Assembly (NCBI GenBank): GCA_040756595.1
Contig: JBFLYR010000004.1
Span: forward strand, 22,695 to 86,694
Direction of reading: 5' to 3'
Length of the DNA: 64,000 bases
From: Pseudomonadota bacterium
GTDB taxonomy: Bacteria > Pseudomonadota > Gammaproteobacteria > Burkholderiales > Rhodocyclaceae
Below the pieces are notes generated by a model, which did not search any database, was not told the DNA's origin, and saw nothing but the letters and a program-made list of their open reading frames with translations. The position numbers and the translations under genes were made by a program. Shown in pieces: positions 1,701 through 55,837 of this stretch; the first letter of the stretch is position 1, and every line of letters begins with the position of its first letter.

Positions 1701-1705
1701 TGCGC

Positions 1706-3727: not shown

Positions 3728-3740
3728 CGGAACCGACGAA

Positions 3741-5213: not shown

Positions 5214-5225
5214 CGGCGCATAGCG

Positions 5226-6701: not shown

Positions 6702-6725
6702 TCCACCTCCTTCCCGAGTTTTGCC

Positions 6726-8242: not shown

Positions 8243-8319
8243 AGGCGGTTAGCTCAGCTGGTTAGAGCGCCACGTTGACATCGTGGAGGTCGTTGGTTCG
8301 ATTCCAATACCGCCTACCA
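8243..8319 (+). tRNA. tRNA-Val (anticodon GAC)
   Basis: Acceptor stem AGGCGGT/ACCGCCT, D-arm GCTCAGCTGGTTAGAGC, anticodon loop TTGACAT, T-loop GGTTCGATTCC and an encoded CCA end. Confidence 0.92.
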
Positions 8320-9938: not shown

Positions 9939-9962
9939 AAAGTCGGCGCTGGCGGGACGGCA
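9939..9962 (+). repeat. 24-nt dispersed repeat, copy 1 (perfect)
   Basis: AAAGTCGGCGCTGGCGGGACGGCA. It is intergenic between the convergent PCuAC and metY genes and ends 1 nt before the metY stop codon. An upstream CCAGCGCCG (9927-9935) pairs with element nt 6-14. Confidence 0.95.
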
Positions 9963-9963: not shown

Positions 9964-11235
9964 TCAGACGGCGGCGAGTGCCTGTTCCAGATCGGCCTTC
10001 AGGTCGTCGATGTGCTCGATGCCGATCGACAGCCGCACCATGTCTTCCGACACACCGGCCTTCGCCAGTTCGGCCGGCGAAAGCTGGCGGTGGGTCGTGC
10101 TGGCCGGGTGGCAGGCGAGGCTCTTGGCATCGCCGATGTTGACGAGGCGCGTGATGAGCTTGAGCGCATCCTGGAAGCGCGCGCCGCCGGTGGCTCCACC
10201 CTTGACGCCGAAGGTCAGGATGCCCGAAGCACGGCCGCCCATGTACTTCTGCGCCAGCGCATGCTCGCGGTGGTCGGGCAGGCCGGCGTAATTGACCCAG
10301 CCCACCTTGGCATGGCCCTTGAGGTACTCGGCCACGGCCTGCGTGTTGGCGCAGATGCGGTCCATGCGCACGGCCAGCGTCTCGATGCCTTGCAGGATCA
10401 GGAAGCTGTTGAAGGGTGAGATCGCCGCACCCATGTTGCGCAGGGGCACGACGCGCGCGCGGCCGATGTAGGCGGCCGGGCCGAGCGCTTCGGTATAGAC
10501 CACGCCGTGGTAGGAGACATCCGGCGTGTTGAGGCGCTTGAAGCGTTCCTTGTGGTCGGCCCAGGGGAACTTGCCCGAATCGACGAGCACGCCGCCGATG
10601 CTGTTGCCGTGGCCGCCGAGATACTTGGTGAGCGAATGCACGACGATGTCGGCGCCATGCTCGAACGGCCGGCACAGATAGGGTGTCGGCACGGTGTTGT
10701 CGACGATCAGCGGCACGCCGGCCGCGTGGGCGATTTCTGCGATGGCCGCGAGGTCGATGATGTTGCCGAGCGGATTGCCGATCGATTCGCAATACACCGC
10801 CTTGGTGCGCGAATCGATGAGAGGTTTAAAGCTCGCGGGGTCGCGATAGTCGGCGAAGCGCACCTCGATGCCATACTGCGGCAGCGTGTGGGCGAAGAGG
10901 TTGTAGGTGCCGCCGTAGAGCGTGCCCACCGAGACGATGTTGTCGCCGGCTTCGGCGATGGTCTGGATCGCATAGGTGATCGCCGCCGCGCCGGAAGCCA
11001 GACCCAGTGCGCCGATCCCGCCTTCCATCGCGGCCATTCGCTTCTCCAGCACGTCGGTGGTCGGGTTCATGATGCGCGTGTAGATGTTGCCGGCGACCTT
11101 CAGGTCGAACAGGTCGGCACCATGCTGCGTGTCGTCGAACGCGTACGAGGTGGTCTGGTAGATCGGCACCGCCACCGCTTTGGTGGTGGGGTCCGGGCTG
11201 TAGCCGCCGTGAACGGCGAGAGTTTCGATTTTCAT
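9964..11235 (-). CDS. metY: O-acetylhomoserine aminocarboxypropyltransferase/sulfhydrylase
   Basis: 423 aa, beginning [18 protein letters not shown], with a PLP-enzyme Cys/Met-metabolism fold ([10 protein letters not shown] lysine motif). Confidence 0.9.
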
Positions 11236-11386
11236 TGGATTCCCCTGCGTTGTTTTTGCTGCTGTTGTTGATAAACTAAGCTTTTCGCTCGATTATATGT
11301 ATCAATCTGATTTTTCGAAACACCCGAAAGATATCACCTGCTAACATCAATGTCCGACAAAACCAATCAAGCATCCGGAGAGACAC

Positions 11387-12355: not shown

Positions 12356-14338
12356 ATGCCCGCCCAACCTGATCTAGACCGACTTTTCGCCGCCGACGGC
12401 CCGCTCGCTCGGGCCATTCCCGGTTACCGCCTGCGCGAACAGCAGATCGCCATGGCGCGCGAAGTGCAGGCGGCCATAGAAGCCAATCGCCTGCTGGTCG
12501 CCGAAGCCGGCACCGGCACCGGCAAGACCTTCGCCTATCTTGCACCCGCATTACTCTCAGGCGGCAAGGTGGTCATCTCCACCGGCACCAAGACCCTGCA
12601 GGACCAGCTCTTCAACCGCGACCTGCCGACCGTGCGCGACGCACTCGGCATGCCGGCGACCATCGCCTTGCTGAAGGGGCGCGCCAACTACCTCTGCCCG
12701 CACCATCTCGACCGCGCGCTCTCCGGCGGCAAGCTCAACTCGCGCGCCGAAGTGATGCACTTGCATGCCATCGCACGCTTCGCCAAGCTCACCGCGAGCG
12801 GCGACAAGGCCGAATGCACCGACGTGCCCGAGGATTCCGGCGCGTGGTACCTCGCCACCTCGACGCGCGAGAACTGCCTCGGGCAGGAGTGCGCCCACGT
12901 CAAGGAATGCTTCGTCCTCGCGGCGCGGCGCGAGGCGCTGCTCGCCGACGTGGTGGTCGTGAACCACCACCTGTTCTTCGCCGACGTGATGCTCAAGGAC
13001 GACGGCATGGGCGAACTGCTGCCGAGCTGCAACACCATCATCTTCGACGAAGCGCACCAGTTGCCCGAAGTGGCCGGCCTGTTCTTCGGCGAGAGCGTCG
13101 GCACGGGCCAGTTGCTCGATCTCGCGCGCGATGCCAAGCTCGAAGGCATCGCCGCCGCCAAGGACTACAAGCCGCTGCAGGAGGCGGTGAAGGCGCTGGA
13201 AAAGGCGGCGAAGGACTTGCGCCTCGCCTTCCGCCACGAGGGCCGCCTCGCCACCGCGCAATGGCTCCAGCACCCGCAGGCCATCGAGGCGCTGAAGCAT
13301 GTGCAGGCGATGCTCGACGAGCTTGGCAAGCATCTCGAAAGCCAGGCCGGACGCTCGGAAGGGCTGGCCAACTGCCTGCGCCGCTGCGGCGAACTCGTGC
13401 TGCTGCTGCGCCATTGGCAGAACGCGAAAGTCGGCGCTGACAAGACGGCACAGGGGGAGGACGAAGAGGAAGAAGAAATTCAGCCGGTACGCTGGGTCGA
13501 AGTAACGACCTACGGTGTCAGCTTCAATCTCACGCCGCTGTCGGTCGCACCGATCTTCCGCAAGCAACTCGAAGGCCATCCGCGCGCGTGGATCTTCACC
13601 TCGGCGACACTCGCGGTCGGCGAGGACTTTTCGCATTACCGCAATGCGCTGGGATTGACGGAGGCCGCCACCGGCCGCTGGGACAGTCCCTTCGACTACC
13701 CGGTCAACGCGCTGCTCTATTGTCCGACCGGCATGCCCGACCCGAACCATCCAGATTATGCCGAGGCCGTGGTCGAAGCCTGCTGGCCGGCGATCAAGGC
13801 ATCGCACGGCCGGGCCTTCGTGTTGTGCACCAGCCTACGCGCGATGCGGCGTATCCACGAACTGCTGGAACTGCGCATTGAAAACGACAGGCTCGACATG
13901 CCGTTGCTGCTGCAGGGACAGCGTTCGAAGTCCGAGCTGCTCGACAGCTTCCGCCGCCTCGGCAATGCCGTGCTGGTGGCGAGCCAGAGCTTCTGGGAAG
14001 GCGTTGATGTGCGCGGCGAGGCACTTTCGCTCGTCGTCATCGACAAGCTGCCCTTCGCGCCGCCCGACGACCCGGTGCTCGCGGCGCGCATCGATACCCT
14101 GAAGCGTCAGGGCCGCAATGCCTTCTTCGAGGTGCAGTTGCCGCGCGCGGTGATCAGCATGAAGCAGGGCGCGGGGCGGCTGATCCGCGACGAGACCGAC
14201 CGCGGCGTGCTGATGGTCTGCGACCCGCGCATGGTCGACAAGCCTTATGGCCGGCGCATCTGGCAGAGCCTGCCGCCGATGCGGCGCACGCGCGAGATCG
14301 CCGACGTCGAAGCGTTTTTCGAGAATCAGGAGAGCTGA
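12356..14338 (+). CDS. yoaA: ATP-dependent DNA helicase, XPD-like Fe-S family (YoaA/DinG type)
   Basis: 660 aa with [18 protein letters not shown] (Walker A), DEAH (FDEAHQL), a four-Cys region (C..C..C..C around residues 115-185), and an N-terminus resembling E. coli YoaA as I recall it. Confidence 0.8.
13427..13450 (+). repeat. 24-nt dispersed repeat, copy 2 (3 substitutions)
   Basis: AAAGTCGGCGCTGACAAGACGGCA lies in frame in yoaA, read as KVGADKTA. It is followed by a purine-rich tract encoding QGEDEEEEE. Confidence 0.8.
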
Positions 14339-15746: not shown

Positions 15747-15990
15747 TATTGTTTTCCTATGGTCTTCACGAGGGGAGCCCCGTCGACCCACCATACGCGC
15801 ATTGCCCACATGTGCAAGACAATTCGTGACCTTGTCAGCAGAGTTCGCTACGAAGCGAAAACCCACATATCAAGCATGGGAAGCAGAATGTGGCCTGGTG
15901 TTATAGGGGAACCACGATATGCGGAAAGTTGGCACTGGCAGGAGGGTGATGCAAGTAAGATGAATACCCCCATTAAAGATTGACCCGACC

Positions 15991-17070
15991 ATGACCGATC
16001 TGTTTTCACCTGCCCGTTTCGGCGCCATCGAGCTTGCCAACCGCATCGTGATGTCGTCGCTGACGCGTAACCGCGCGGGGGCGGGCAACGTGCCGACGCC
16101 GCTGGTGGCCGAGTACTACCGGCAGCGCGCCAGCGCCGGCCTGATCCTCACCGAGGCGTCGCCGATCTGCCCGGCGGGGCACGGCTATCCGCGCACGCCG
16201 GGCATTCACAGCGAGGCGCAGATCGCCGGCTGGCAGGGCGTGACCGATGCGGTGCATCGTGCCGGCGGCAAGATCGCCCTGCAGATTTGGCATGTGGGCC
16301 GCATCTCGCATCCGGATTTGCAGCCCGGCGGCCAGTTGCCCGTTGCGCCGTCGGCGCTCAAGCCGGCCGGCCAGACGTTCACGGGCACGGGCATGAAGGA
16401 CTTCGTCACACCGCGCGCGCTCGCGACGGACGAGATTCCCGGGCTGGTGGCCACGTATGCGCAAGCGGCGAAGAATGCGCTGGATGCCGGCTTCGACGGC
16501 GTCGAGGTGCATGCCGGCAACGGCTATCTGATCGACCAGTTCCTGCGTTCGTCGACCAACCAGCGCACCGATGCCTACGGCGGCAGCAAGGAGAAGCGCG
16601 CCCGCCTGCTGCTGGAAGTGCTCGATGCCGTGGCCGGCGCCATCGGCAACGATCGCGTCGGCCTGCGGCTCTCGCCGGTCACGCCCTTCAACGACATCCG
16701 CGACGACGCGCCGCAGGACACCTTCGACTACGTCGTGACGCAACTGAACCCACGCCGGCTGGCCTTCCTCGACATCCTGCAGGGCACCGGCGGTTCGCCG
16801 CGCGAGCAGTGGGAACCGTTCGACTACGACCGCCTGCGTGATCTGTACGAAGGCAACCTGATCCTCAACAACGGTTACGACTTTGCCAGCGCGCAAGCGG
16901 CGCTCAGTGCGGGCAAGGCCGACGCCGTTGCCTACGGCCGGCTGCTGCTGGCGAATCCCGATCTCGTCGAACGTTTCCGCCGCGGCGCGCCGCTCAACCA
17001 GCCGGACTACGACAGGCTCTACGTCGGCGAGGAAAAGGGCTACACCGACTATCCCGCGCTGACAGGCTGA
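15991..17070 (+). CDS. nemA: NADH:flavin oxidoreductase / N-ethylmaleimide reductase (Old Yellow Enzyme family)
   Basis: 359 aa. It is collinear with E. coli NemA as recalled (PLTRxRA, EYYRQRASAGLI, HxANGYLxxQFL, GYTDYP at the C-terminus). Confidence 0.85.
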   Translation: MTDLFSPARFGAIELANRIVMSSLTRNRAGAGNVPTPLVAEYYRQRASAGLILTEASPICPAGHGYPRTPGIHSEAQIAGWQGVTDAVHRAGGKIALQIWHVGRISHPDLQPGGQLPVAPSALKPAGQTFTGTGMKDFVTPRALATDEIPGLVATYAQAAKNALDAGFDGVEVHAGNGYLIDQFLRSSTNQRTDAYGGSKEKRARLLLEVLDAVAGAIGNDRVGLRLSPVTPFNDIRDDAPQDTFDYVVTQLNPRRLAFLDILQGTGGSPREQWEPFDYDRLRDLYEGNLILNNGYDFASAQAALSAGKADAVAYGRLLLANPDLVERFRRGAPLNQPDYDRLYVGEEKGYTDYPALTG

Positions 17071-17093
17071 AAGTCGGCGCCGGCGAGACGGCA
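17070..17093 (+). repeat. 24-nt dispersed repeat, copy 3 (2 substitutions)
   Basis: AAAGTCGGCGCCGGCGAGACGGCA. Its first A is the last base of the nemA TGA stop codon. Confidence 0.9.
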
Positions 17094-17115: not shown

Positions 17116-18189
17116 ATGAAGCTTTCAGACCTTCCCGCCGATCTGCTGGCCGATCGGCCGCATCTGTTCTCTGCCGCCACCGTGCCGGTGACGGCGGACG
17201 ATATGGCGCGCATGCGGGAAGTGATCGACGCGGTCGAGCATGTGATTGCATTGAAAGTCGGCGCTGGTGAGACGGCAGCCGCAGCAGGGCACGGCGTCTT
17301 CATGGGCTACGACTTCCATCTGACGCCGGCCGGCCCGCAACTCATCGAGATCAACACCAATGCCGGCGGCGGGCTGCTCGCGGCATTGCAGGCGCAGCGC
17401 GACGACGTGCTGGCTGCCTACGCCGCGATGTTCCGCGCCGAATGCCCACGTGAACTCAAGGCGCTCGCCATCGTCGATGAACAGCCGGCGAGCCAGTACC
17501 TCTACCCGGAGTTCCTCGGCTTCAAGCAGTTGTTCGAGGCGCACGGCATCACGGCGGTGATCTGCGATCCGTCCGAACTGATGCTCTGCCACGGCAACCT
17601 TTGGCACGAGGAAACGAAGCTCGACCTCATCTACAACCGGCTCACCGATTTCGATTTTTCAATGCCGGCGCACGCGGTGCTGCGCGAGGCCTGGCGGCAG
17701 GGCGTGACGATCACGCCCAACCCGGTGCTGCACGCGCACTATGCCGACAAGAAGAACCTGATCGCTCTGACCGATGCCGCCCAACTGGAAGCTTGGGGCG
17801 TCGATGCCGGGACGCAACGCATCCTGCTCGATGGCATTCCACGCACCGAACAGGTTGCGACGGAACGTGCCGATGATTTCTGGCAGCGCCGCAAGCAACT
17901 GTTCTTCAAGCCGGCGCTGGGCTATGGCTCGAAGGGCTCATATCGCGGCGACAAGCTGACCAAGCGGGTGTTCGAGGAAATCCTCGCCGGCGACTATGTC
18001 GCGCAAGCCTTTGCTCCGCCGTCGACCGTCCCGCTTGATGTGGCCGGGGAAATGACCGAGCTCAAGGCTGATGTCCGCAACTATGTGTATCGTGGCGCGG
18101 TCCAACTGGTGGCAGCGCGCCTGTATCAGGGGCAGACGACGAATTTCAGGACACCGGGCGGCGGTTTCGCGAAGGTAATCGAGGCATGA
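17116..18189 (+). CDS. Uncharacterised protein, possibly ATP-grasp-like
   Basis: 357-aa ORF with good coding appearance. The motifs IEINTNAGGG and NFRTPGGGFA are reminiscent of ATP-grasp/GSP-synthetase-like folds. This is a weak, memory-based assignment. Confidence 0.5.
   Translation: MKLSDLPADLLADRPHLFSAATVPVTADDMARMREVIDAVEHVIALKVGAGETAAAAGHGVFMGYDFHLTPAGPQLIEINTNAGGGLLAALQAQRDDVLAAYAAMFRAECPRELKALAIVDEQPASQYLYPEFLGFKQLFEAHGITAVICDPSELMLCHGNLWHEETKLDLIYNRLTDFDFSMPAHAVLREAWRQGVTITPNPVLHAHYADKKNLIALTDAAQLEAWGVDAGTQRILLDGIPRTEQVATERADDFWQRRKQLFFKPALGYGSKGSYRGDKLTKRVFEEILAGDYVAQAFAPPSTVPLDVAGEMTELKADVRNYVYRGAVQLVAARLYQGQTTNFRTPGGGFAKVIEA
17254..17277 (+). repeat. 24-nt dispersed repeat, copy 4 (2 substitutions)
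   Basis: AAAGTCGGCGCTGGTGAGACGGCA lies in frame in the 17116 ORF and is read as KVGAGETA. Confidence 0.9.
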
Positions 18190-18683: not shown

Positions 18684-19978
18684 GTTACGAAGAAGCCCTC
18701 GATCATTTGCTTGCCGCCGCAGAGCCCGTGGCGGAAACGAAGCAGTTGCCACTCTCGGTTGCACGCGGCCGCATCCTCGCCGAAGCGGTCGCTTCGACCG
18801 TGACGGTGCCGCCGCTCGACAACAGCGCGATGGACGGCTATGCGGTGCGCTGCGCGGATGTCCAACAGACCGGTGTGGCATTGCCCATATCGCAGCGCAT
18901 CCCGGCGGGCAGCGTCGGCCATGCGCTCGCAGCCGGTACGGCAGCGCGCATCTTCACCGGCGCGCCGGTACCGGCCGGTGCCGATGCGGTGGTGATGCAG
19001 GAATATTGCACGCAAATGAGCGAGCACGGCCCCGATGGCAGGGTGATCGTCAATCAGGTGCCGAAGCCCGGCCAGAACATCCGCCGTGCGGGCGAGGACA
19101 TCACTGCCGGCGCCGCCGTGCTGCAAGCCGGCACGCGCATCGGCGCGGCCGAGATCGGCCTCGCGGCCTCGATCGGCATCGCGCAACTGCCGGTGCGGCG
19201 CCACCTGCGCGTCGCGCTGCTGTCGACCGGCGACGAGCTGACCGAACCCGGCAATCCCCTGCCGCCGGGCGGCATCTACAACTCGAACCGCCATTTCCTG
19301 CGTGCGATGTTCGAGCAGATGGGTTGCACGGTGACCGATGCCGGCCATGTGCCGGACACGCTCGATGCGACGCGTGCGGCGCTGCGCGCGGCGGCGGAAG
19401 CGCACGACCTGATCGTCACCTCCGGCGGCGTGTCGGTGGGCGAGGAAGATCACGTCAAGCCGGCGGTCGAGGCGGAAGGCGCGCTGTCGCTGTGGAAGAT
19501 CGCCATCAAGCCGGGCAAACCGCTGGCCTTCGGCCATGTGCGAAAAGTCGGCGCTGGGCCGTCCCAAGCCGACGCCCCCCCTGTGGGGGGCAGCGAGCCG
19601 GGTTTGCGAGCGAGGGGGGCCAATAAAGTCGGCGCTGGCGGGACGGCATTCATCGGCCTGCCGGGCAACCCGGTTTCCTGCTTCGTGACCTTCCTGCTGT
19701 TCCTGCGCCCCTATGTGCTGAAGCGCATGGGCATGGCGACCACCTTGCCGCTGGCGCGTCAACTCGTGTCGGCGTCCGACTGGACCAAGCCCGAGGATCG
19801 GCGCAGCTTCCTGCGCGCGCGCATCGCGCCGGACGGCCGCGTCGAGTTGTATCCGAACCAGAGTTCCGGCGTGCTGACCTCCTGCGCCTGGGCCGACGGA
19901 CTGGTGGATGTCGAGGCGAACAAGACCTTCAAGGCGGGCGACCCGGTGCGCTATCTCGCCTTCGCCGACTTGCTATAG
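18677..19978 (+). CDS. moeA: Molybdopterin molybdenumtransferase MoeA (carries an in-frame insertion of about 35 codons)
   Basis: 433 aa with the motifs PPLDNSAMDGYAV, SGGVSVGEEDH, KPGKPLAFG and GLPGNPVS. The insertion lies between the last two motifs. Confidence 0.9.
   Translation: MLSYEEALDHLLAAAEPVAETKQLPLSVARGRILAEAVASTVTVPPLDNSAMDGYAVRCADVQQTGVALPISQRIPAGSVGHALAAGTAARIFTGAPVPAGADAVVMQEYCTQMSEHGPDGRVIVNQVPKPGQNIRRAGEDITAGAAVLQAGTRIGAAEIGLAASIGIAQLPVRRHLRVALLSTGDELTEPGNPLPPGGIYNSNRHFLRAMFEQMGCTVTDAGHVPDTLDATRAALRAAAEAHDLIVTSGGVSVGEEDHVKPAVEAEGALSLWKIAIKPGKPLAFGHVRKVGAGPSQADAPPVGGSEPGLRARGANKVGAGGTAFIGLPGNPVSCFVTFLLFLRPYVLKRMGMATTLPLARQLVSASDWTKPEDRRSFLRARIAPDGRVELYPNQSSGVLTSCAWADGLVDVEANKTFKAGDPVRYLAFADLL
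19544..19557 (+). repeat. 24-nt dispersed repeat, copy 5 (5' 14 nt only)
   Basis: AAAGTCGGCGCTGG is followed by GCCGTCCCAAGCCGAC, which resembles a deleted reverse-orientation copy. It lies in frame in moeA. Confidence 0.7.
19625..19648 (+). repeat. 24-nt dispersed repeat, copy 6 (perfect)
   Basis: AAAGTCGGCGCTGGCGGGACGGCA lies in frame in moeA and is read as KVGAGGTA. Confidence 0.95.
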
Positions 19979-22999: not shown

Positions 23000-25594
<2,595 letters not shown>

Positions 25595-28426: not shown

Positions 28427-29584
28427 TTATTGTAGCTCGTCAAGTCCGTAGAGATCGGGGAAGAAGCGGATGCGGCCATCGTCGCCGGGCAGCGCAGTGA
28501 GATAGGCAATCACCACCGGCAGGGGTTCCTGCAGGTGCAGCGTAGAGGAAATGCCTTTCGCCATCGCAACCTCGATGCGTGCCTGATCCCAGTCTGCTTG
28601 CGGGGCAAGAACGAACTTGGCCAGCGCCAGCGGTTCCTCGACGCGGATGCAGCCGTGGCTGAAATCGCGTCGCGCCTTGTTGAACAGGCGGACAGCCGGG
28701 GTGTGATGCAGGTAGATGTTGTCACTGTTGGGGAACACGAACTTGATGCCGCCCAGCGCATTCTTCGGCCCCGGCCGCTGGCGGATGCGCAGATTGCCCT
28801 CCAGTACTGCGGCCAGGTTGTCATCCGACAGCGTGGTGTCGGTACCTCCCGCGCGACTATAGAACTCGAAGCCCTGTTCTTCGAAGTAGGCCGGATCACT
28901 GCGCAGCTTGGGAATCGTCTCCTGGCGTGCGATCGACGGCGGCACGTTCCAATACGGGCTGAATTCGATGTAGCGCATTTCCTCGACGAACAGTGGCGTG
29001 CGCGTCTTCAGCGCACTGCCGACGATGATTTTCATGTGCAGCTTTTCCGTGTTCCCTTCGAATGCGCGCAGCGAGAATTCCGGCACATTGACAAGCAGCC
29101 AGCGCGGCGAAAATGGCAACTGCTTCAGGCGTTCGATATTCAGCTCGATCTGGCGCGCGCGTTGTGCCGGAGGAACCTTGAGTTGGGCCAGCGTGTCCTT
29201 GCCGATCACGCCATCGGGTTCGAGGCCGTGGCGACGCTGGAAAGCAACGACACCCTCGACGAGCTTGCCTGCGTAGCGTGGTGGCACTTCGGTGTCGGCA
29301 GGCAGGTCGCCCAGGGCGACAAGGCGCCCGATCAGCAGGGCGAGTCCGGCGTAGGGTTTACCGGGTTCGAGTTTGCGGGGGATGGGGGGGAGCGGTTCGC
29401 TCCACGCGGCTTGTACTGTCGGGTCGGCAGCCAGTTGCCGATAGTGCGGTAGCGCCGTATCGAGCCCGTCGATCAGCGGGTTTGCCTGCGCCACGCCGAA
29501 GATCAGCAGGCCGGCCAGAAAGGCCAGTAACCGCCCGCCTATGCCAACGTTTGGGAGTCGGCGCTGGCGGGACGGCACAGGCAT
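28427..29584 (-). CDS. L,D-transpeptidase (YkuD domain with PG-binding domain; YcbB/LdtD-like)
   Basis: 385 aa with a signal peptide, the PG-binding-like VVAFQRRHGLEPDGVIG, and the catalytic HGCIRV motif. Confidence 0.85.
   Translation of the reverse strand: MPVPSRQRRLPNVGIGGRLLAFLAGLLIFGVAQANPLIDGLDTALPHYRQLAADPTVQAAWSEPLPPIPRKLEPGKPYAGLALLIGRLVALGDLPADTEVPPRYAGKLVEGVVAFQRRHGLEPDGVIGKDTLAQLKVPPAQRARQIELNIERLKQLPFSPRWLLVNVPEFSLRAFEGNTEKLHMKIIVGSALKTRTPLFVEEMRYIEFSPYWNVPPSIARQETIPKLRSDPAYFEEQGFEFYSRAGGTDTTLSDDNLAAVLEGNLRIRQRPGPKNALGGIKFVFPNSDNIYLHHTPAVRLFNKARRDFSHGCIRVEEPLALAKFVLAPQADWDQARIEVAMAKGISSTLHLQEPLPVVIAYLTALPGDDGRIRFFPDLYGLDELQ
29554..29577 (+). repeat. 24-nt dispersed repeat, copy 8 (2 substitutions at nt 1-2)
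   Basis: GGAGTCGGCGCTGGCGGGACGGCA lies antisense within codons 3-10 of the L,D-transpeptidase and is read as PSRQRRLP. Confidence 0.88.
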
Positions 29585-33175: not shown

Positions 33176-33199
33176 AAAGTCGGCGCTGGCAGGACGGCA
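33176..33199 (+). repeat. 24-nt dispersed repeat, copy 9 (1 substitution)
   Basis: AAAGTCGGCGCTGGCAGGACGGCA begins immediately after the TGA stop codon of the 32348 methyltransferase. Confidence 0.93.
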
Positions 33200-35864: not shown

Positions 35865-35888
35865 TGCCGTCCCGCCAGTGCCGACTTT
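35865..35888 (-). repeat. 24-nt dispersed repeat, copy 10 (1 substitution)
   Basis: The + strand reads TGCCGTCCCGCCAGTGCCGACTTT. The copy is in gene-sense orientation and begins 6 nt after the ybiT stop codon. Confidence 0.93.
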
Positions 35889-37590: not shown

Positions 37591-38298
37591 ATGAAAACAC
37601 TGACATTGGAAAAAATCCTGCAATCGCAGGGCTTCGGCACGAAGAAAATGTGCCGCTACATGGTGCTGGACGGTTTGGTGGAAATCGGCGGCGAGGTTGT
37701 GGACGATGTGCGCGCCGAGTTCGATCCCGCCAATCTCGAATTCACGGTCGATGGCGCAGCGTGGCAATACCGCGAACACGTCTATCTCGCGCTCAACAAG
37801 CCGACTGGCGTCGAATGCTCGCGCCGGCCGGCGGTCCATCGCGGTGTGCTCTCGCTGCTGCCCGACCCATTCACCGCGCGCGACGTGCAGCCGGTCGGCC
37901 GGCTCGACCACGACACCACCGGCCTGCTGCTGCTTTCGGACGACGGCGCCTTTATCCATTCCCAGTCGCATCCCAAGCGCCATGTGCCGAAAACCTATGT
38001 GGCGACCACGCATGAACCCGTGACGCCGGAACTGGTTGCCAAGCTGCAAGCTGGCGTGAAGCTGATGGACGAACCGGCGCTGCTCAATGCACAGGCACGG
38101 CAGGTCGGCGCATGCGAGATCGAGATCGTGCTCGACATGGGCAAATACCACCAGGTGAAGCGCATGCTCGCCGCCGCCGGCAGCCATTGCGTCGCGTTGC
38201 GGCGTACCGCGATCGGACAATTGACGCTGGCGTCGCTCGGTCTAGCCGAGGGCGAATGGTGTTATCTGGACGAGGCACAACGCGCACTGCTGGTATAA
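37591..38298 (+). CDS. rsuA: 16S rRNA pseudouridine synthase (RsuA family; S4 domain plus catalytic GRLD)
   Basis: 235 aa from ATG 37591, with the motifs ALNKPTGVECS, VGRLDHDTTGLLLLSDDG, KTYVAT and GKYHQVKRM. Confidence 0.75.
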   Translation: MKTLTLEKILQSQGFGTKKMCRYMVLDGLVEIGGEVVDDVRAEFDPANLEFTVDGAAWQYREHVYLALNKPTGVECSRRPAVHRGVLSLLPDPFTARDVQPVGRLDHDTTGLLLLSDDGAFIHSQSHPKRHVPKTYVATTHEPVTPELVAKLQAGVKLMDEPALLNAQARQVGACEIEIVLDMGKYHQVKRMLAAAGSHCVALRRTAIGQLTLASLGLAEGEWCYLDEAQRALLV

Positions 38299-38321
38299 AA
38301 GTCGGCGTTGGCGGGACGGCA
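38298..38321 (+). repeat. 24-nt dispersed repeat, copy 11 (1 substitution)
   Basis: AAAGTCGGCGTTGGCGGGACGGCA. Its first A is the last base of the rsuA TAA stop codon. Confidence 0.93.
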
Positions 38322-39606: not shown

Positions 39607-40658
39607 CCGGCCAGAATATCCCGCGCGATCGCATCGATGCTGGCGGGGCTCAAATCCTCGGCGATGAATTTCGCGGCATCCGTGTAGTCGCGGAAATTCT
39701 TCTCCTGCGAACGCTGGTAGAGCGGGTCGTAGTGCTTTTCCAGAAGTTCATCGACCAGCGTGCGGAAGTCGCCTGCCTCGATCAGCGTGGTCCAGCGCGC
39801 CAGCGTTTCGTTGCTCTGCAGGCCGCGCAGATGGCCGAGTTGCCCGATCAGCCATTGTGGCCGGCTGAGAAAATATTCGTAGTCGCGCAGCAGAAAGTCG
39901 GCTCTGGCGGGACGGCACGCGTCGATACGGATGCAGGGCGCGGCGCGCATGGCGAAGATCAGCGCGTCGGGAACCTGCAAGCTGCCAATGCGGCGGCTTT
40001 CCGCCTCGACAAAAACAGGCTGTGACGCGTCGAGTCTGGCCAGCGCAGCGAGGAGGTTCGTCTCGAACATGCGCTGCGATGGCTGTGGCGCATCGGGCAG
40101 GTTGCCGAGCACCGAGCCCTTGTGGGCAGCGAGCTCCTCGAGGTGCAGTACCTGAGCGCCCTGCGCACCGAGCGCTTCGAGGATGCGACTCTTGGCGCTG
40201 CCGGTCGGGCCGGAAATCACCTTGTAAGTGAACTGCGTCGGCAGCGTCGCCAACGTGTCGACGACATGGCGGCGCCAGGTCTTGTAGCCGCCGTCGAGGC
40301 GGTGCGCGTCCCAGCCGATCTCGCGCAGAATATGGGTGAAGGCACCTGAACGTTGCCCGCCGCGCCAGCAATAGACGAGGGGACGCCAGCTTTTCGGCTT
40401 GTCGAGGAACTGTGCCTCGATGTGCGCGGCGATATTTTTTGCGACGAGGGCGGCGCCGACTTTCTTCGCCTCAAAGGGCGAAACCTGCTTGTAGAGCGTG
40501 CCGACCTTGATCCGTTCCTCGTTCGACAGCACCGGGCAACTGGTAGCGCTGGGGATGTGGTCGTCGGCGAACTCGGCCGGCGAACGCGCGTCGAGCAGCG
40601 CATCGAATTCGCCCAACTGGGCCAGCGTGGCGACGCCGCGGGATCGGTGTTCGGCCAT
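39603..40658 (-). CDS. selU: tRNA 2-selenouridine synthase (rhodanese plus P-loop)
   Basis: 351 aa with a rhodanese active site (YCWRGGQRS) and a Walker A motif (SGPTGSAKS). It is collinear with E. coli SelU/YbbB as recalled. Confidence 0.85.
   Translation of the reverse strand: MAEHRSRGVATLAQLGEFDALLDARSPAEFADDHIPSATSCPVLSNEERIKVGTLYKQVSPFEAKKVGAALVAKNIAAHIEAQFLDKPKSWRPLVYCWRGGQRSGAFTHILREIGWDAHRLDGGYKTWRRHVVDTLATLPTQFTYKVISGPTGSAKSRILEALGAQGAQVLHLEELAAHKGSVLGNLPDAPQPSQRMFETNLLAALARLDASQPVFVEAESRRIGSLQVPDALIFAMRAAPCIRIDACRPARADFLLRDYEYFLSRPQWLIGQLGHLRGLQSNETLARWTTLIEAGDFRTLVDELLEKHYDPLYQRSQEKNFRDYTDAAKFIAEDLSPASIDAIARDILAG
39894..39917 (+). repeat. 24-nt dispersed repeat, copy 12 (1 substitution)
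   Basis: AAAGTCGGCTCTGGCGGGACGGCA lies antisense inside selU and is read as CRPARADF. Confidence 0.93.
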
Positions 40659-41942: not shown

Positions 41943-43184
41943 ACGTGCGGCGGCCACGCCGCTCCTGACCGCGCCTTCGAGCGTGGCAGGGTAATCCCCA
42001 GCCACGTAGTCGCCCGCCAGCCAGACGTTCGGCAACCCGGTTGCTGTTGGTGGTCGCTCCAGGCTTGGCGTACAGGCGAAGGTGGCGCGCTTTTCCTCGA
42101 TCACCCAATGCTTGAGTGGCGGTCGCAGGCCGGGCAGCAGCGCGGCGATCTGGGCATGGATGGAAGCGGCCAGCGCGTCGTGATCGAGTTCCTGCCACGG
42201 GCCGGTGCCGCTGATGACTGCCGCGAGGATGCCGGGTTGGCCACAGAGCGCGCCGCGGTCGAAAATCCACTGGGCATAACCATTGTCCAGGCCGATCATC
42301 GGGAAGGGCAGCAGCGTGGCACCGGGATAGGCGAGGTAGCAGGTGGCGATGGGTTGCCAGTCGAACCGGAACCGTGCGGCAATCTCTGGCAGCAGCGCCG
42401 CCAGATGGTAGGGCGCGACGGCGATGACCTTGTGGTCGAAGCGGCCGAGTTCGTTGAGTTCCGCCAGCGTCCGGATGCGGGTGCCGCGGACGACACGGCC
42501 GCCATGACTTGCGATGAAACGTGCCGCCGGCTCGGGGAACAGGCTGGAAAAATCGGTCGCCGGCAGCAGCAGGTCGGAGGCCGCTCGATCGGCGGCGAGG
42601 CTGTCGCGCAGCACATTGAGGAAAACCTGTGCCGAAGCGCTGGCGACGGGTGTGTTGAGCGCGGCGAGGCAGAGCGGTTCCCAGAGGAAGCGCCGCACGC
42701 GTTCGGGTTGCCGATGGGCGGAGAAGAGGTCGGCGGCGCTCAAGTCTTCGGGCAAGCGGAAGTTGCGCGCCTGTTGCGCGCGCATGAAACGGATGGCGGC
42801 AATCTTGTCCTTGAACGAAAGCCCGCGGGCCGTGAGCAGCGCCCAGCCGAGATGCAGCGGAGCCGGCAGATTGGGCGCGGCCACTTTGACTTGTCCGGGG
42901 AACTCCAGATGCAAGAACTCACGCTTTAGTGGCTTTAGTGCCGTCCTGTCAGCGCCGACTTTTTCCATCAAGCGCAGAGTTTCGCGATAGGCACCGACGA
43001 GGATGTGCGCGCCGTTGTCGACGGTCATGCTGTCGAGCGTGACGGCACGGGCGCGGCCGCCGAGCGTGTGAGAAGCCTCGAAAACTTCGACGGCCACGCC
43101 GGCCTCTGCCAGTTCGACCGCGCTGGCGAGGCCGGCGTAACCCGCCCCAATCACGGCTACTTTCGTGGCTACGCGCGCAGCCAT
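41907..43184 (-). CDS. hpnE: Hydroxysqualene dehydroxylase (FAD-dependent amine-oxidase family)
   Basis: 425 aa from ATG 43184 with the dinucleotide fold VAVIGAGYAGLASAVELA. It is the last gene of an hpnC-hpnD-hpnE arrangement. Confidence 0.8.
   Translation of the reverse strand: MAARVATKVAVIGAGYAGLASAVELAEAGVAVEVFEASHTLGGRARAVTLDSMTVDNGAHILVGAYRETLRLMEKVGADRTALKPLKREFLHLEFPGQVKVAAPNLPAPLHLGWALLTARGLSFKDKIAAIRFMRAQQARNFRLPEDLSAADLFSAHRQPERVRRFLWEPLCLAALNTPVASASAQVFLNVLRDSLAADRAASDLLLPATDFSSLFPEPAARFIASHGGRVVRGTRIRTLAELNELGRFDHKVIAVAPYHLAALLPEIAARFRFDWQPIATCYLAYPGATLLPFPMIGLDNGYAQWIFDRGALCGQPGILAAVISGTGPWQELDHDALAASIHAQIAALLPGLRPPLKHWVIEEKRATFACTPSLERPPTATGLPNVWLAGDYVAGDYPATLEGAVRSGVAAARSILRETSGHQS
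42939..42962 (-). repeat. 24-nt dispersed repeat, copy 13 (2 substitutions)
   Basis: The + strand reads TGCCGTCCTGTCAGCGCCGACTTT. The copy lies in sense and in frame in hpnE and is read as KVGADRTA. Confidence 0.9.
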
Positions 43185-44002: not shown

Positions 44003-44823
44003 AATGCTTTCCAGAGAACGCGCGGCCAATCGAGTGCGCTGAGTACCGGACGCCGATTGAAGACGTCGTAGTCGGCCGCTTCGATCTTGGCCAGAATGCA
44101 CAGGCCGCCGGCGACGATGGCGCGGATTTCCATGCCGATGCGACCCGGCAGATCGTGGCCGAGCGATGCGCCGCTCAGCATCAGCGCGCGGGCACGCTCG
44201 ACCTGAAAGCGCATCAGTGCGCAAAAGTCGGCGCTGGCGAGACGGCTGCTCAGGGACTGTTCGGTCACGGCAAAACGCTTCATGTCTTCCTGCGGCAAAT
44301 AGATGCGGCCATTGTGCCCCTTATCGAGGTCGATGCCGACATCCTGCCAGTGATTGATGAGCTGCAGGGCGGAACAGATGGCGTCCGAGCGGCGCAGCTT
44401 GTCCGGGGTGGTGGTACCAAAGAGGTGCAGCAGCAAGCGGCCGACCGGATTCGCCGAACGGCGGCAGTAGTCCATCAACTCATCGTAACTGGCGTAGCGG
44501 TCCTTGACGACATCCTGCGCGAAGGCGTCGAGCAGGTCGCGAAAGAGCTGGAGGGGGAGTTTGTACTCTTGGATGTGCGGCCGCAGCTGCAGGAAAACCG
44601 GGTGTGCCGTCGGTTCGCTACGCTCGATGCGATCCAGTTCGGCCTGATAGCCGGCCAGCAGGCGCAGGCGTTCTTCCGGTGGCAGGCTGCCTTCATCGGC
44701 GAAATCGTCTGCCGAACGGGCGAAGACGTAGATCGCCGTTACGGCAGGTCGCAAGTGCGCCGGCAGCAAGAGCGAAGCAACGGGGAAATTCTCGTAGTGA
44801 TCCGGTTTTTCGGGCGGGGCCAT
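43999..44823 (-). CDS. hpnC: Squalene synthase HpnC
   Basis: 274 aa with the motifs HYENFPVAS, YVFARSADDFADEG and INHWQDVGIDLDKGHNGRIYLP. Confidence 0.82.
   Translation of the reverse strand: MAPPEKPDHYENFPVASLLLPAHLRPAVTAIYVFARSADDFADEGSLPPEERLRLLAGYQAELDRIERSEPTAHPVFLQLRPHIQEYKLPLQLFRDLLDAFAQDVVKDRYASYDELMDYCRRSANPVGRLLLHLFGTTTPDKLRRSDAICSALQLINHWQDVGIDLDKGHNGRIYLPQEDMKRFAVTEQSLSSRLASADFCALMRFQVERARALMLSGASLGHDLPGRIGMEIRAIVAGGLCILAKIEAADYDVFNRRPVLSALDWPRVLWKAL
44224..44247 (+). repeat. 24-nt dispersed repeat, copy 14 (2 substitutions)
   Basis: AAAGTCGGCGCTGGCGAGACGGCT lies antisense inside hpnC and is read as SRLASADF. Confidence 0.88.
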
Positions 44824-52239: not shown

Positions 52240-52633
52240 CCTGCATGTCGGCACCGAACACCCCGGTCGGTACCGGGCGTCCGAGTGCAGTGCCCAGCGC
52301 GGCGACGAAGCGTTCAAACATCGGTTGCGAAAAATCGGCTCTGGCGGCACGGCTCCATGAGGGGCGGTTGCCCTTCTTCACCGACGCGTAGAGCGTGAAT
52401 TGCGACACGGCGAGAACCTCGCCGCCGCTGTCGACGACGCTGAGGTTCATCACGCCTTGCGCATCCGAGAAGATGCGCAAGCCAAGCAGTTTGCGCACCA
52501 TCCAGTCGACGTCGGCGCCAGTATCACTGTCCTCGAAGCCGGTCAGCACCAGCATGCCAGGGCCGATGCTACCGGTGGTATTCCCGGCGACCGTGACGGA
52601 AGCGCATGTAACCCGCTGTACGACGACTCTCAT
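52181..52633 (-). CDS. dtd: D-aminoacyl-tRNA deacylase
   Basis: 150 aa with [23 protein letters not shown] and [15 protein letters not shown]. It is collinear with E. coli Dtd. The 639-aa track ORF is this gene plus an antisense shadow of recC. Confidence 0.92.
52331..52354 (+). repeat. 24-nt dispersed repeat, copy 15 (degenerate, 4 substitutions)
   Basis: AAAATCGGCTCTGGCGGCACGGCT lies antisense inside dtd and is read as SRAARADF. Confidence 0.6.
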
Positions 52634-52684: not shown

Positions 52685-55600
52685 ATGCTGCACATCCACC
52701 ATGGCAATCGTCCGGACAGCCTCGTCGCCGCGTTGACGACGCTGTTGCGCGTCGATCCGCTGCCGCTGCTGGAACCGGAAACCATCGTCGTCCCCTCGAC
52801 CGCGATGGCGCGCTGGCTGGGCTTCCAGCTTGCGGACGGGCTGGGGATCGCGGCCCAGAATGCCTTCGTCTTTCCGGCGTCCTACGTCTGGCAATTGTTC
52901 GGCCGCGTGCTGCCCGACGTGGCGACGAGCAATCCCTTCGACCGGGATGCAATGCATTGGCGCCTGCTGCGTTTGCTGGGTGACAGTCGCGCACCGGAAA
53001 TCCGCCATTACCTCGACGGGGATGACGGTGCACGCCAGTACGAACTGGCGGGAAAGCTTGCCAGCCTGTTCGATCGTTATCTCGTCGAGCGGCCCGACTG
53101 GATCGCGGCATGGAGTGCAGGCAAGCGGCTCGGCCTCGGTCCGGATGAAGTCTGGCAATCCGGACTCTGGCGCACGTTGCGCGCCGACCTGCCAGAGGTT
53201 GCGACGGAACATCCGCGCGAGCGCTTCCTCGCGGCATTGCGTGCCCAACCGGCCGTGCGTGCGCGCCTGCCGCGCCGACTCAGCCTGTTCTGTGTCGAGG
53301 CGATGCCTGCGCTGTATTGGGAAGTCTTTGTCGGACTCGCAGTGTGGCTCGACGTGCATGTCTTCGTGCTGGCGCCCTGTCGCGAATACTGGGGCGACAT
53401 CGAGAAAATGCGTGAACGGCTGCGCATGGAACTCGAACAACCCGAGGCGGCCCTGCTTTATGAAACCGGCCATCCGCTGCTGGCCTCGCTGGGCCGGGCG
53501 CGCCAGCATGCGGTGCTGCGGCTTGCCGATGCTGCAACGCAGACCGCCAGTGCCGAACATGAGTATTTCGTTGCTCCGCCCTCGACATTGTTGGGTGCCT
53601 TGCAGCGCGACATCCTTGACCTTTCGGCCAGTCGCGCGGTAGCGATGGACGCCACGCTGCAGATCCACGACTGCCACGGTGCGCAGCGCGAAGCAGAGGT
53701 ACTGCTCGACCGCCTGCTCGATCTGTTCGAACGGCTGCCGGATTTGCGACCAGCCGACATTCTGATCCTCACGACCGACATCGAAGCCTACGGTCCGATC
53801 ATCGAGGCCGTGCTGGCACATGCGCCGCGGGAGCGGCGTATTCCATGTACCGTGGCCGACCGGCCGCTCGCCATTGCGCCGCTCTGGCGCGCGCTGCGTC
53901 AGCTGTGCGTCGTGGCGGCGGGTGAGTTCGATGCGGAAAGCGTGCTGTCCCTGCTTGACGAACCCGCGCTGCGGCGCGCATTCGACATCGATGAAAACGA
54001 ATTGCCGCGACTGCGCGACTGGGTGGGCGAGGCTGGCATCCGCTGGGGCATCGACGGCGCGGCGCGTGCCCGACATGGTCTGCCGGCGGAAGATGCCCAC
54101 AGCTGGCGTGCCGGGCTACAGCGGCTGCTACTGGGCGTGGCGTTGCCGGATGCGCCCGAGCGTCTGTGGCAGGGCATGCTGCCGGTGACGGGAATCGAAG
54201 GCGAGCGGGCTGAGTTGCTGGGCCGTTTCGTCGATTTCACCGAAGCTTTGTTTGGGCTGAGTGAAAAAGTCGGCGCTGGCAGGACGGCATCGGAATGGTG
54301 TCGGCTGCTTGCCGCGACGCTGGAACACTTTCTCGCACCCGACGAAGCGGAGGAGGGGCAGGCGCAAGGCTTGCGGGAAACGCTGACCCGGCTCGGCGAA
54401 CTGGCGGATTCCGCGCGATGCGCCACCCGGCTGCCGTTGTCGGTGCTATTGCGTGAAATTGATGAACGGCTGAAAGAGCAGGCGCCCGCACAGGCATTCG
54501 TTTCCGGCACGGCGACGATCGCGGCGCTGCAACCCGGCCGTCCCGTTTCCGCGCGTGTCATCTGTCTCGTCGGCATGAACGACGGGGCCTGGCCGCGCCC
54601 GGCGACGCCACAGGGTTTCGACCTGATGGCCGCGCATCCGCGTCCCGGTGATCGCAACCGGCGCGGCGAGGAGCGTCATGCTTTCCTCGAAGCACTGCTG
54701 TGCGCGGGAGATGCCCTGATCGTCACGTATGCCGGGCGCGATCCGCGCAGCAACCTTGAATTGCCGCCCGCTGCACCGCTCGCCGAACTGATCGACACTC
54801 TTGTGGCAATGACCGGGAAAGCGGCCGATGCGCTGGTAGTGCAGCATCCATTGCAACCCTTTGGCAGCGCGTATTTCGATGGTAGAGACACGCGTATCTT
54901 CAGTTTCGATGCCGAGCATTGCCGACAAGCCTCCGTGCCGGCAGCCTCCGCATTCCTTGGCCGGAAGGTGCGTGTCGAAGCGCTTGACGTTGATGAAATC
55001 GACCTGCCGGAACTGCAGCGCTTTTTTGCTCACCCGGTGCGTCATTTCCTGCGCGAGCGCATGGGCATCCATCTCGAAGAGTCCGAGGAATTGCTCGACA
55101 TGCACGAACCCTTCGTGCCGAATGCGCTCGAAGCCTACCGGTTGCGGGAGGCGCAGTTCGCAGGGCTGGTGGCCGGCCACCCGGTTGATGAGGTGACCGC
55201 GCTATTGCATGCCCGTGGCTGGTTGCCGCAGGGGGTGGCGGGCGACCTGGCCGCGCGCGCGGCGCACGACGAGGCATTGCCGCTCTGGCAGAGCGCGCAA
55301 GCCTGGCTCGATGCAGGGCGCCAACCTGACTGCGCGGTGGAATTCGCAGCGCACGGGATACGCCTGAGCGGCCGGCTCGACGGCCTGACCGACCGCGGAC
55401 TCTGGCGCGTGCGCCACGGCAAGCTGCGCGCGAAGGACCGCTTGCGCCTGTGGCTCGATCATCTGCTGCTGAATGTCGCGGCGCCGGCCGGTGTGCCGCT
55501 GCACAGCAGCTTGATTGCCCGCGATGCGTTCATGCAGCTCGTACCGGAACCGCGTGCGCGTGAGGTTCTGGCTGGTCTGCTGGCGCTCTATCGTGATGGC

Positions 55601-55831
55601 TTGCTGCAGGCCTTGCCCATCTATCCGGAAACGGCGTGGGCCTGGTTGGAACAGAAGAACTGGCGCCGGGAGTGGGAGGGCGATGCTTTCAACTACAAGC
55701 CTGGCGAGCGCGATGACGCATATGTGCGCCTGGCCTTGCGCGATCGCCCGGAAGACCCGCTCGGCGCTGAGTTCCAGCAATTGGCAGAGCACATCTTTGG
55801 CCCCCTGAAACAGAAAGTCGGCGATGGCTGA
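52685..55831 (+). CDS. recC: Exodeoxyribonuclease V gamma subunit
   Basis: 1048 aa, beginning MLHIHHGNR...L, as is typical of RecC. It is followed by overlapping recB and recD genes. Confidence 0.9.
54266..54289 (+). repeat. 24-nt dispersed repeat, copy 16 (1 substitution)
   Basis: AAAGTCGGCGCTGGCAGGACGGCA lies in frame in recC and is read as KVGAGRTA. Confidence 0.93.
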
Positions 55832-55837
55832 ACGGCA
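55814..55837 (+). repeat. 24-nt dispersed repeat, copy 17 (3 substitutions)
   Basis: AAAGTCGGCGATGGCTGAACGGCA. The substitutions create the recB ATG (55824) and the recC TGA (55829-55831). Confidence 0.75.

Follow-up and report, generated by a model that had tools for sequence, protein, structure and literature searches.

Why does one short sequence recur so often, and so nearly unchanged, along an ordinary stretch of bacterial chromosome? The question is raised by 64 kb of DNA from a member of the Rhodocyclaceae (assembly GCA_040756595.1, contig JBFLYR010000004.1, positions 22,695 to 86,694 of the forward strand). This whole stretch is referred to here as the window, and in it the 24-nt sequence AAAGTCGGCGCTGGCGGGACGGCA is found in 19 full-length copies. 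A first reading of the letters (the original prediction) had seen in these copies two invariant arms around a mutable 9-nt core, and had taken variants shared by distant copies for subfamilies that spread copy from copy or by gene conversion. It had also suggested that the conserved ends mark either a protein recognition site or the termini of an element. When the window is compared with related sequences from other genomes, the 24-mer is best read as a lineage-specific signal that would be read in trans on the DNA, and not as a piece of mobile DNA.

A word with sharp borders

The window holds 18 matches to AAAGTCGGCGCTGGCGGGACGGCA at three or fewer mismatches, against none in 100 dinucleotide-preserving shuffles. 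The arms-only pattern TCGGC-N9-ACGGC finds 19 matches where 0.58 are expected, and a limit of four mismatches recovers the identical set of 19 copies, a density of one per 3.4 kb. The mismatch spectrum is bimodal, with 19 copies at four or fewer, none at five and one at six (15925), and the counts at seven to eight mismatches equal the Markov background. With the motif masked, no other repeat family was found in the window. Further loci were collected with the exact 21-mer core as query, one genome per species. Among the matches listed, these 862 kb from other genomes contain 217 copies at four or fewer mismatches, and the same loci after shuffling contain none. The pooled set thus consists of 236 copies, 19 from the window and 217 from 119 listed loci of other genomes, individual loci being denoted by handles such as L090.

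Our own tabulation gives the same numbers as the original prediction: 29 substitutions over the 19 window copies, 24 of them in positions 10-18 (binomial p = 8e-7), and no variation at positions 3, 5-9, 13 and 19-23. The imperfect direct repeat G(T/A)CGGC was also reproduced, its arms GTCGGC (4-9) and GACGGC (18-23) starting 14 nt apart. The notion of a mutable 9-nt core needs to be amended. Most changes do fall there, but positions 11, 13 and 14 are near-invariant over the 236 copies, and the variation is found at 10, 12 and 15-18, in the order 17 (G to A), then 18, then 12 (T to C), 16 and 15, then 10. Degeneracy over the 236 copies is not uniform, and tolerance is specific to position. The unit is made of two strong arms, a conserved central GG and a few tolerant positions, and is not a free 9-mer between arms. 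In the logo of the 217 other-genome copies, conservation extends from position 0 (mostly A) to position 24 (G in 134 copies, A in 69) and not beyond, so that the motif is strictly a 25-bp word, a-AAAGTCGGCGCTGGCGrGACGGC-r. The 70 bases on either side of the 19 window copies have no homology in common.

The length of the 24-mer is a multiple of three, and none of its six frames contains a stop codon. A hairpin, or a structure of the repetitive extragenic palindromic (REP) type, was considered and rejected: neither strand folds better than its shuffles (-3.0 and -0.5 kcal/mol; z 0.2 and 1.1).

Origin of the copies in place

Nine orthologous sites, in ClpB, ParC (two sites), MoeA, Dtd, a squalene-synthase-type gene, a UbiE-like gene and two non-genic positions, allow motif-bearing sequences to be compared with relatives that lack the motif. 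At all nine the motif-less relatives are equal in length within two codons, and graded intermediates occur. Because these relatives have the same or nearly the same length and intermediates are present, the copies have been built in place by small mutations, and not inserted.

The individual sites differ in how fully the series can be followed. Among 120 close homologues of ClpB, the linker shows a graded series toward the motif at a constant length of 36 residues, while ClpB of Escherichia coli is 7 residues shorter under the motif site. At the ParC site 61444, outgroups read AAGGTC---GCCGGCGACACG (AAG GTC --- GCC GGC GAC ACG; KV-AGDTV), and the intermediates L134, L129 and L120 lead up to the exact motif. 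A similar graded series is found among relatives at the N-terminal ParC site 63425, within a proline-rich tail. Dtd matches its Pfam profile insertion-free, with 144 residues on 144 positions, and the squalene-synthase-type protein has 257 residues for 260 profile positions, which leaves no room for an 8-residue insertion. In the MoeA loop, Sulfurisoma has RIATDGGGAD, one codon shorter than the window counterpart and in the same length class; at the UbiE-like site relatives differ by two codons. In the pairs L098/L009 and L001/L026, substitutions alone separate the motif-bearing from the motif-less site. ClpB and MoeA are longer than their E. coli counterparts; this too was tried as a trace of insertion and rejected, since closer relatives show a clade-typical loop, plus the element X described below.

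The copy-from-copy spread proposed by the original prediction does not agree with these nine sites. In its full form that proposal makes the 24-mer a tiny mobile or conversion-propagated repeat, comparable to the cyanobacterial small dispersed repeats (SDRs) of 21-27 nt, with variants that mark subfamilies. Several facts would suit it: some variants are linked, the length is a multiple of three and stop-free in six frames, insertions (33, 54 and 81 nt) are concentrated within or next to copies, and the gene-end copy L003:1870 lies within a 30-nt stretch that is absent from L039. When flank homology, target duplications and clean indels were looked for, none was found: there was no clean 24-nt presence/absence at any of the compared orthologous sites, where substitution series or changes of one to two codons were seen instead, and neither terminal inverted repeats nor target duplications at the 19 window copies. 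In addition, copies compared across genera are better conserved than neutral sites, unlike relics of insertion. A homology of 24 bp is also short for RecA-mediated conversion. We therefore rejected the insertion element and regard a mobile or conversion-propagated repeat as improbable.

What the shared variants mean

The shared variants on which the subfamilies had been based are all present: 14A+16A at 13427 and 42939, 16A at 33176 and 54266, 10T at 39894, 52331 and 63425, 12C at 17070 and 24563, and 17A at 17070, 17254 and 44224, to which 13427 can be added. Most of them have simpler causes, because the changes recur at a few tolerated positions, because some are inherited with orthologous copies (the RecC copy and its L123 orthologue both carry 16A), and because of coding needs. 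The latter are seen in copy 55814, which supplies the recC stop and the recB start. The share of copies with GGG at positions 16-18 differs by coding class, being 81% in noncoding copies, 53-80% across coding frame classes and about 65% in coding copies overall. Most of the supposed subfamilies thus reflect recurrent change at tolerant positions, lineage preference or coding constraint, and not descent of one copy from another.

Some of the linkage is nevertheless real. The combination 17A+18T was found 12 times against 2.4 expected, and 1G+2G 6 times against 0.8 expected. The double variant 14A+16A at 13427 and 42939, for which about 0.03 copies are expected from the per-position frequencies, lies in unrelated flanks. 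This pair is left without an explanation by the simpler causes, and gene conversion may have played a minor role in the variants.

Conservation of the DNA itself

If the copies were built in place, what keeps them alike? At four-fold degenerate sites of ParC, in comparison loci that were not picked by the presence of the motif, 8.7% of sequence pairs differ inside the copy versus 31% elsewhere (column permutation p = 0.017). The clpB copy is identical at 23 of its 24 positions to that of a metagenome-assembled genome labelled Propionivibrio (L090), although the gene overall is 78% identical. Copies in RecC, RecB and ParC are common to the window and to L018, L120, L123, L125 and L132. Finally, a tail of decayed copies is missing from the mismatch spectrum. 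The synonymous-site conservation and the missing tail together mean that a force acts on the DNA sequence itself, and the copies are actively maintained at the DNA level.

A clade-restricted signal with lineage variants

At least 66 species-level assemblies carry the exact 21-mer core, which was found in at least 119 stretches. Among the matches listed, the carriers are mostly labelled Sulfuritalea, Sulfurisoma, Propionivibrio, Methyloversatilis, Azonexus, Sterolibacteriaceae or Rhodocyclaceae, and a few have other or only higher-rank labels. The ClpB of the window shares 96% identity with Sulfuritalea proteins. How far the clade extends was read from metagenome contigs picked via ParC and not via the motif. 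Most ParC relatives at 83% identity or more carry copies, and those at 72-78% carry none, including the 22 kb of L127. In Sulfuricystis thermophila, the 22.6 kb around clpB contain 3 copies; Sulfurisoma sediminicola has 2 weak copies, and the Candidatus Nitricoxidivorans sequence examined held no copy. The motif is thus confined to a Sulfuritalea/Sulfuricystis-type clade of the Rhodocyclaceae.

Within this clade, position 24 differs by lineage. The window has A there in 17 of its 19 copies, and five other assemblies have G in every copy (8/8, 6/6, 5/5, 5/5 and 5/5). Orthologous copies carry the variant of their own genome, as seen for clpB in the window and in L090. Such a joint, genome-wide shift, together with the sharp 24-25 bp borders, the position-specific tolerance and the synonymous conservation, argues for a trans-acting reader. 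Of the two meanings that the original prediction had given to the conserved ends, the pattern of a protein recognition site is therefore retained, while that of element termini is not, given the lack of flank homology and the origin in place.

A different kind of trans-acting agent was also considered, in which near-matches are rewritten to the consensus from a nucleic-acid template, by reverse-transcribed or small-RNA-guided patch repair. Such rewriting would explain the sharp 24-nt borders, the conversion in place, the dialect shifts and a bias between lagging and leading strand. The window shows no template locus, reverse transcriptase or structured RNA, however, its Rfam families being four tRNAs and nothing else, and the position-specific tolerance, with noncoding copies only slightly nearer to the consensus, speaks for graded recognition. 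We know of no precedent for such a system, and we consider it highly improbable.

A small element that enters the motif

In the window, moeA carries an 81-nt in-frame insertion, element X, in the loop that also holds a motif copy. Its core is a G/C-hairpin, flanked at each motif-associated insertion by motif positions 1-14 on the left and by the full motif on the right. Its entry is specific for the motif, and in housekeeping genes it keeps the frame. Element X was found inside the motif at six independent loci: window moeA (19544-19648), L123 parC (L123:3241-3345), L121 recB (L121:5016-5120), L021:606-713, L081:4894-5103 (a tandem pair) and L074:1335-1431. The composite in L123 parC, at the site corresponding to 61444, is 98% identical to that of moeA, the range over the parC and recB copies being 93-98%, and the copy in L121 recB, at the 58640 site, is inverted. 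Relatives carry a plain motif at the occupied parC and recB sites, and X must therefore have entered motif copies that already existed. X itself begins with an inverted motif of reduced length, GCCGTCCC-AA-GCCGAC, in which both arms are retained and which pairs with the duplicated head. No Rfam match was obtained for X. A protein search with the X-encoded peptide returned only two short hypothetical proteins, which indicates that X is not a common in-frame insert in the searched frame.

Other insertions occur at the same sites. In L018/L125, in-frame insertions of 33 and 54 nt lie in or beside the copies orthologous to 58640, 61444 and 63425 in parC and recB, and at the 63425 site an insertion of 33-36 nt splits the motif. 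These insertions repeat part of the motif and carry CCAAT/ATTGG beside a fragment of it, and may represent relatives of X that have degraded.

Could the motif then exist mainly as the place where X and its relatives attach or insert, or as the terminus they leave behind, in the manner of Neisseria dRS3? The constant flanking by motif head and full motif, the entry into existing copies and the pairing between the start of X and the duplicated head would all be in keeping with this. X is rare, however: in 1.4 Mb it was counted about 8 times and the plain motif more than 300 times, and relatives of X in L112 and L022 have no motif. Plain motifs evolve in place from non-motif sequence, unlike excision leftovers, and a host would have no evident reason to conserve hundreds of landing sites. 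We find such an origin quite improbable. The motif is a preferred landing site for small elements, a property that does not explain its abundance.

Placement of the copies in the window

The window is ordinary core chromosome, with nuoI-N, cysteine and methionine enzymes, a DinG-like helicase gene, moeA, clpB, tag and a YkuD-family gene, followed by an ABC-F gene, hopanoid-type squalene synthases, tig-clpP-clpX-lon, dtd, recC, recB and parC. Pilus and com genes are absent from it. The features of the motif and of element X are collected in Table 1.

Table 1. Motif copies, the degenerate relative and element X in the window (variants are given relative to the reference copy)
Feature	Position	Strand	Context
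Reference copy, exact consensus	9939..9962	+	Reads AAAGTCGGCGCTGGCGGGACGGCA; intergenic, ends 1 nt short of the stop of a minus-strand Cys/Met pyridoxal-phosphate (PLP) enzyme gene (9964-11292)
Copy 14A, 16A, 17A	13427..13450	+	Within DinG-like helicase gene, read KVGADKTA
Degenerate relative, 6 mismatches, the sole one in the window	15925..15948	+	May be a decaying or nascent copy
Copy 12C, 17A	17070..17093	+	Begins with the final A of the TGA stop of a flavin oxidoreductase gene (15964-17070)
Copy 15T, 17A	17254..17277	+	Within open reading frame (ORF) 17071-18189 (no Pfam family), read KVGAGETA
Duplicated motif head (positions 1-14)	19544..19557	+	Left of element X in moeA
Element X core, 67 nt	19558..19624	+	With the 14-nt head, forms the 81-nt in-frame insertion in the MoeA loop
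Exact copy	19625..19648	+	Within moeA, read KVGAGGTA
Copy 12C	24563..24586	+	clpB linker; orthologous to the L090 copy
Copy 1G, 2G	29554..29577	+	Antisense, first codons of YkuD-family gene; orthologous copy in Sulfuricystis thermophila (L212:18863)
Copy 16A	33176..33199	+	Intergenic, directly 3' of a TGA stop
Copy 10A	35865..35888	-	Intergenic, 6 nt past the stop of the ABC-F gene (35895-37526, minus strand)
Copy 11T	38298..38321	+	Overlaps the TAA stop of a pseudouridine synthase gene (37540-38298)
Copy 10T	39894..39917	+	Antisense within rhodanese-domain ORF, read CRPARADF
Copy 14A, 16A	42939..42962	-	Between ORFs 41943-42929 and 42939-43286; coding status uncertain
Copy 17A, 24T	44224..44247	+	Antisense within squalene/phytoene-synthase gene
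Most divergent copy, 4 mismatches including 10T	52331..52354	+	Antisense within dtd
Copy 16A	54266..54289	+	Within recC; orthologous copies in L123 (also 16A) and L125
Copy 11A, 16T, 18A	55814..55837	+	Holds the recC stop (TGA) and recB start (ATG); kept in L123 and L125
Copy 18T	58640..58663	-	Antisense within recB; orthologues in L018/L125, L120 and L132
Exact copy	61444..61467	-	Within parC, read KVGAGGTA
Copy 10T, 15T	63425..63448	+	Antisense in the proline-rich parC N-terminus

Thirteen of the 19 copies lie within ORFs with coding-type G+C content at third codon positions. In the window, sense copies all read KVGAGGTA-like peptides and antisense copies CRPASADF-like or AVPPAPTF-like ones; copies in other genomes use all six reading frames, KVGAGGTA and AVPPAPTF being the commonest. 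The coding copies in ClpB, MoeA and ParC sit in linkers and loops. The copy at 55814 is particular, since its centre reads GATGGCTGA and thereby carries both the recC stop and the recB start: here the motif is fitted around the overlapping recC/recB junction. At the site orthologous to 58640, L123 has a degraded copy without any change in length, and L121 has element X.

About a third of the window copies are intergenic, while at most 13% of the window is (p = 0.03). In the pooled set, a stop codon ends between -6 and +3 nt from the AAA end in 18 of 236 copies, compared to 8 among 1180 positions taken at random. With its A-rich 5' end the motif touches or overlaps stop codons about ten times more often than random, as in the window copies 17070, 33176, 38298, 9939 and 35865. 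Spacing along the window is more even than random (coefficient of variation 0.59 vs 0.95, p = 0.011), and the longest motif-free stretches, 1-7000 and 44900-50800, correspond to nuoI-N and tig-clpP-clpX-lon, which are more conserved than any other genes there. Six of the 19 copies fall in DNA-maintenance genes, which occupy about 17% of the window, numbers too small for a test of enrichment.

Two further observations concern the window as such. Between 32000 and 36000 the G+C content is 0.56-0.57 versus about 0.64, with a phnA/yjdM-like gene and small ORFs, and the copies 33176 and 35865 lie inside this region. The tRNA genes found by Rfam, at 7722-7808 (-), 8243-8316 (+), 44879-44960 (+) and 50853-50925 (+), are not associated with the motif.

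Strand bias and a possible chromosomal role

Of the 19 copies, 15 lie on the plus strand, where GC skew is positive over most of the window. In the other loci with |skew| > 0.04, the G-rich strand of the motif is co-oriented with the local skew in a ratio of 51:33, with p from 0.06 to 0.8 depending on the threshold. By our estimate, a word with 5 excess G that is built from near-matches at a background skew of 0.04-0.08 would give 60-69% co-orientation, and the strand bias neither needs nor excludes a real replication polarity. A polarity like that of the FtsK-orienting polar sequences (KOPS) or of Chi was considered, and is not supported by the weak skew correlation in the loci compared. The resemblance to Chi lies in positions 10-17, GCTGGCGG (window 9948-9955), which are one base off E. 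coli Chi, GCTGGTGG; the 15T variant is an exact Chi in several other-genome copies.

These facts bear on the possibility that the motif is the binding site of a host chromosomal protein, in the nucleoid, in segregation or as a Chi-type self signal, which ordinary selection keeps at each position. Such a site agrees with the conservation at the DNA level, the even spacing, the restriction to one clade and the dialects as well as a drive through DNA uptake does. The near-Chi octamer with recB, recC and a probable recD (59249-60859) inside the window, and the modest co-orientation of the G-rich strand with GC skew (15:4 in the window, 66:37 pooled), can be added in its favour. The octamer, however, coincides with the positions that vary most (12, 15-17), the invariant arms lie outside it, and the co-orientation is weak, about what background skew predicts. 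A positional function would also hardly explain sites built into the loops of ClpB, ParC, RecB and MoeA, and we know of no class of chromosomal site with 24 asymmetric bp, about one per 3 kb, in both orientations. On balance we hold a chromosomal protein site to be rather unlikely.

A putative uptake signal

Abundance, sharp borders, origin in place, conservation at the DNA level, even spacing, clade restriction and dialects are what we observe. The features known jointly for DNA uptake sequences are a long asymmetric word, high copy number, both orientations, even spacing, genic copies that favour certain frames and weakly conserved residues, an origin in place, more conservation than the protein requires, clade restriction and dialects (PMC2817400, PMC3630211). 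Since this combination is otherwise known only for such sequences (PMC2817400, PMC3630211), we tentatively favour, at a little under an even chance, an uptake-type signal that accumulates in place by transmission bias and resembles a DNA uptake sequence most closely. That the uptake apparatus is the reader of the motif is what we infer from this likeness.

The process could take the following form. Copies would start where the chromosome already has a partial match, in flexible loops and linkers, at gene ends and in short spacers by stops, and point mutations together with indels of one or two codons would perfect these matches. A force on the DNA itself would then keep them near the consensus. 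This force would most likely be the one known from DNA uptake sequences: a competence machinery would preferentially bind and take up fragments bearing the word, so that better-matching alleles are over-transmitted by natural transformation and accumulate (molecular drive). The main contacts would be made with both G(T/A)CGGC arms and G13-G14, and weak contacts with positions 10, 12 and 15-18.

Several points weigh against this uptake reading. The word has 24 conserved bp and is far richer in information than known uptake sequences, whose cores measure 9-12 bp. Its density is one per 3.4 kb in the window and about one per 10 kb in the other loci (beyond the copy that selected them), whereas uptake sequences in Haemophilus or Neisseria reach about one per kb. 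The strand bias and pooled co-orientation given above are not a classical property of uptake sequences. In viral-labelled contigs with the motif, the density of further copies is about two thirds of that in the host: a set of 59 IMG/VR-labelled stretches (L153-L211), each with an exact 21-mer core, has 0.64 further copies per 10 kb, compared to 0.99 per 10 kb in genome loci. Strict exclusion from foreign DNA would not predict these viral copies, which therefore count against uptake; proviral host flanks are a possible cause of their presence. In the literature we found no uptake or transformation data on these organisms, no paper that links the taxa to uptake sequences, and no paper that contains the motif sequence.

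A more specific proposal, for which we also allow a fair part of the probability while placing it short of even, is that the motif represents a third, independent family of uptake signals. It would be a 24-bp two-armed self tag of free-living sulfur- and hydrogen-oxidising Rhodocyclaceae (the Sulfuritalea/Sulfuricystis group), which has reshaped loops of essential proteins, among them ClpB, ParC, RecB, RecC and MoeA, and serves as the homing site of the in-frame 81-nt element. If this is true, self-biased transformation is not peculiar to pathogens and commensals and extends to at least 66 environmental species, and a much longer recognition word becomes available for studying how a receptor reads DNA. 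It would also provide a natural marker to separate core from recently acquired DNA in metagenome bins of the group. Whatever the reader may be, there is a constraint on 24 bp of DNA strong enough to alter amino acids in ClpB, ParC, RecB/C and MoeA, and a small element that uses the motif as an intragenic landing pad. Since the carrier Sulfuricystis thermophila has been cultured and its genome is complete, the idea is directly testable.

Comparison with known systems

The abundant short chromosomal repeats of the REP class, including bacterial interspersed mosaic elements (BIMEs) and REP doublets forming hairpins (REPINs), invite comparison with the motif. REPs are extragenic palindromic hairpins mobilised by REP-associated tyrosine transposases (RAYTs), whereas the 24-mer does not fold and 13 of its 19 window copies are inside ORFs. 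The cyanobacterial SDRs (21-27 nt), some with a conserved hairpin, were reportedly inferred by Elhai and colleagues in 2008 to be mobile insertions. They have in common with the motif their size class, copies inside genes and nested insertions (compare element X), but for the motif insertion is not supported and there is no structure. Cyanobacterial HIP1 (highly iterated palindrome) also spreads in place, as the motif does. In Neisseria, the dRS3 units are intergenic inverted repeats of about 20 bp that flank mosaic elements (Neisseria intergenic mosaic elements, NIME) and serve as integration targets. The likeness is that of a short repeat acting as landing site and flank of small units, here X and the tandem array of L081; the difference is that the 24-mer is mostly solitary, often coding and not palindromic. 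Chi, like the motif, is G-rich and acts as a lineage-specific self signal (putative in our case) at a density of about one per 3-5 kb, and the RecBCD genes are in the window. Chi is an 8-nt sequence strongly co-oriented with replication, however, while in the motif the corresponding octamer is the least conserved part and co-orientation is weak.

The closest comparison is with the two known families of uptake sequences. To our knowledge, sequence-specific DNA uptake is documented only in Pasteurellaceae and Neisseriaceae, both of them host-associated. The uptake signal sequence (USS) of the Pasteurellaceae consists of a core of 9 bp, AAGTGCGGT, embedded in a motif of about 30 bp, and the DNA uptake sequence (DUS) of the Neisseriaceae is 10-12 bp long, with GCCGTCTGAA. 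Neither the DUS core nor the USS core is contained in AAAGTCGGCGCTGGCGGGACGGCA on either strand, and the motif is thus not a member of either sequence family, being similar in behaviour only.

Both the USS and our motif are long, asymmetric and over-represented in both orientations, with genic copies in preferred frames and at poorly conserved residues (PMC2817400). Known uptake sequences have 35-65% of their copies in ORFs and prefer poorly conserved residues (PMC2817400). Even spacing and accumulation in place, as opposed to transposition, are further common traits. The motif differs from the USS in its unrelated sequence, in its carriers, which are Rhodocyclaceae (Betaproteobacteria), and in its lower density. 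Moreover, the strong block is 24 bp here, compared to 9 bp with weak flanks in the USS, and the uptake role is putative. With the DUS, the motif has in common that each is found in one betaproteobacterial family-level clade and that many copies lie just 3' of genes. Variants fixed genome-wide by lineage, here A versus G at position 24, are a further likeness (PMC3630211). The motif is twice as long as the DUS, however, has a larger coding share and shows no inverted, terminator-forming pairs. What is new with respect to the known uptake sequences is the length of 24 conserved bp, the different taxon and ecology, and the homing of an element into the motif.

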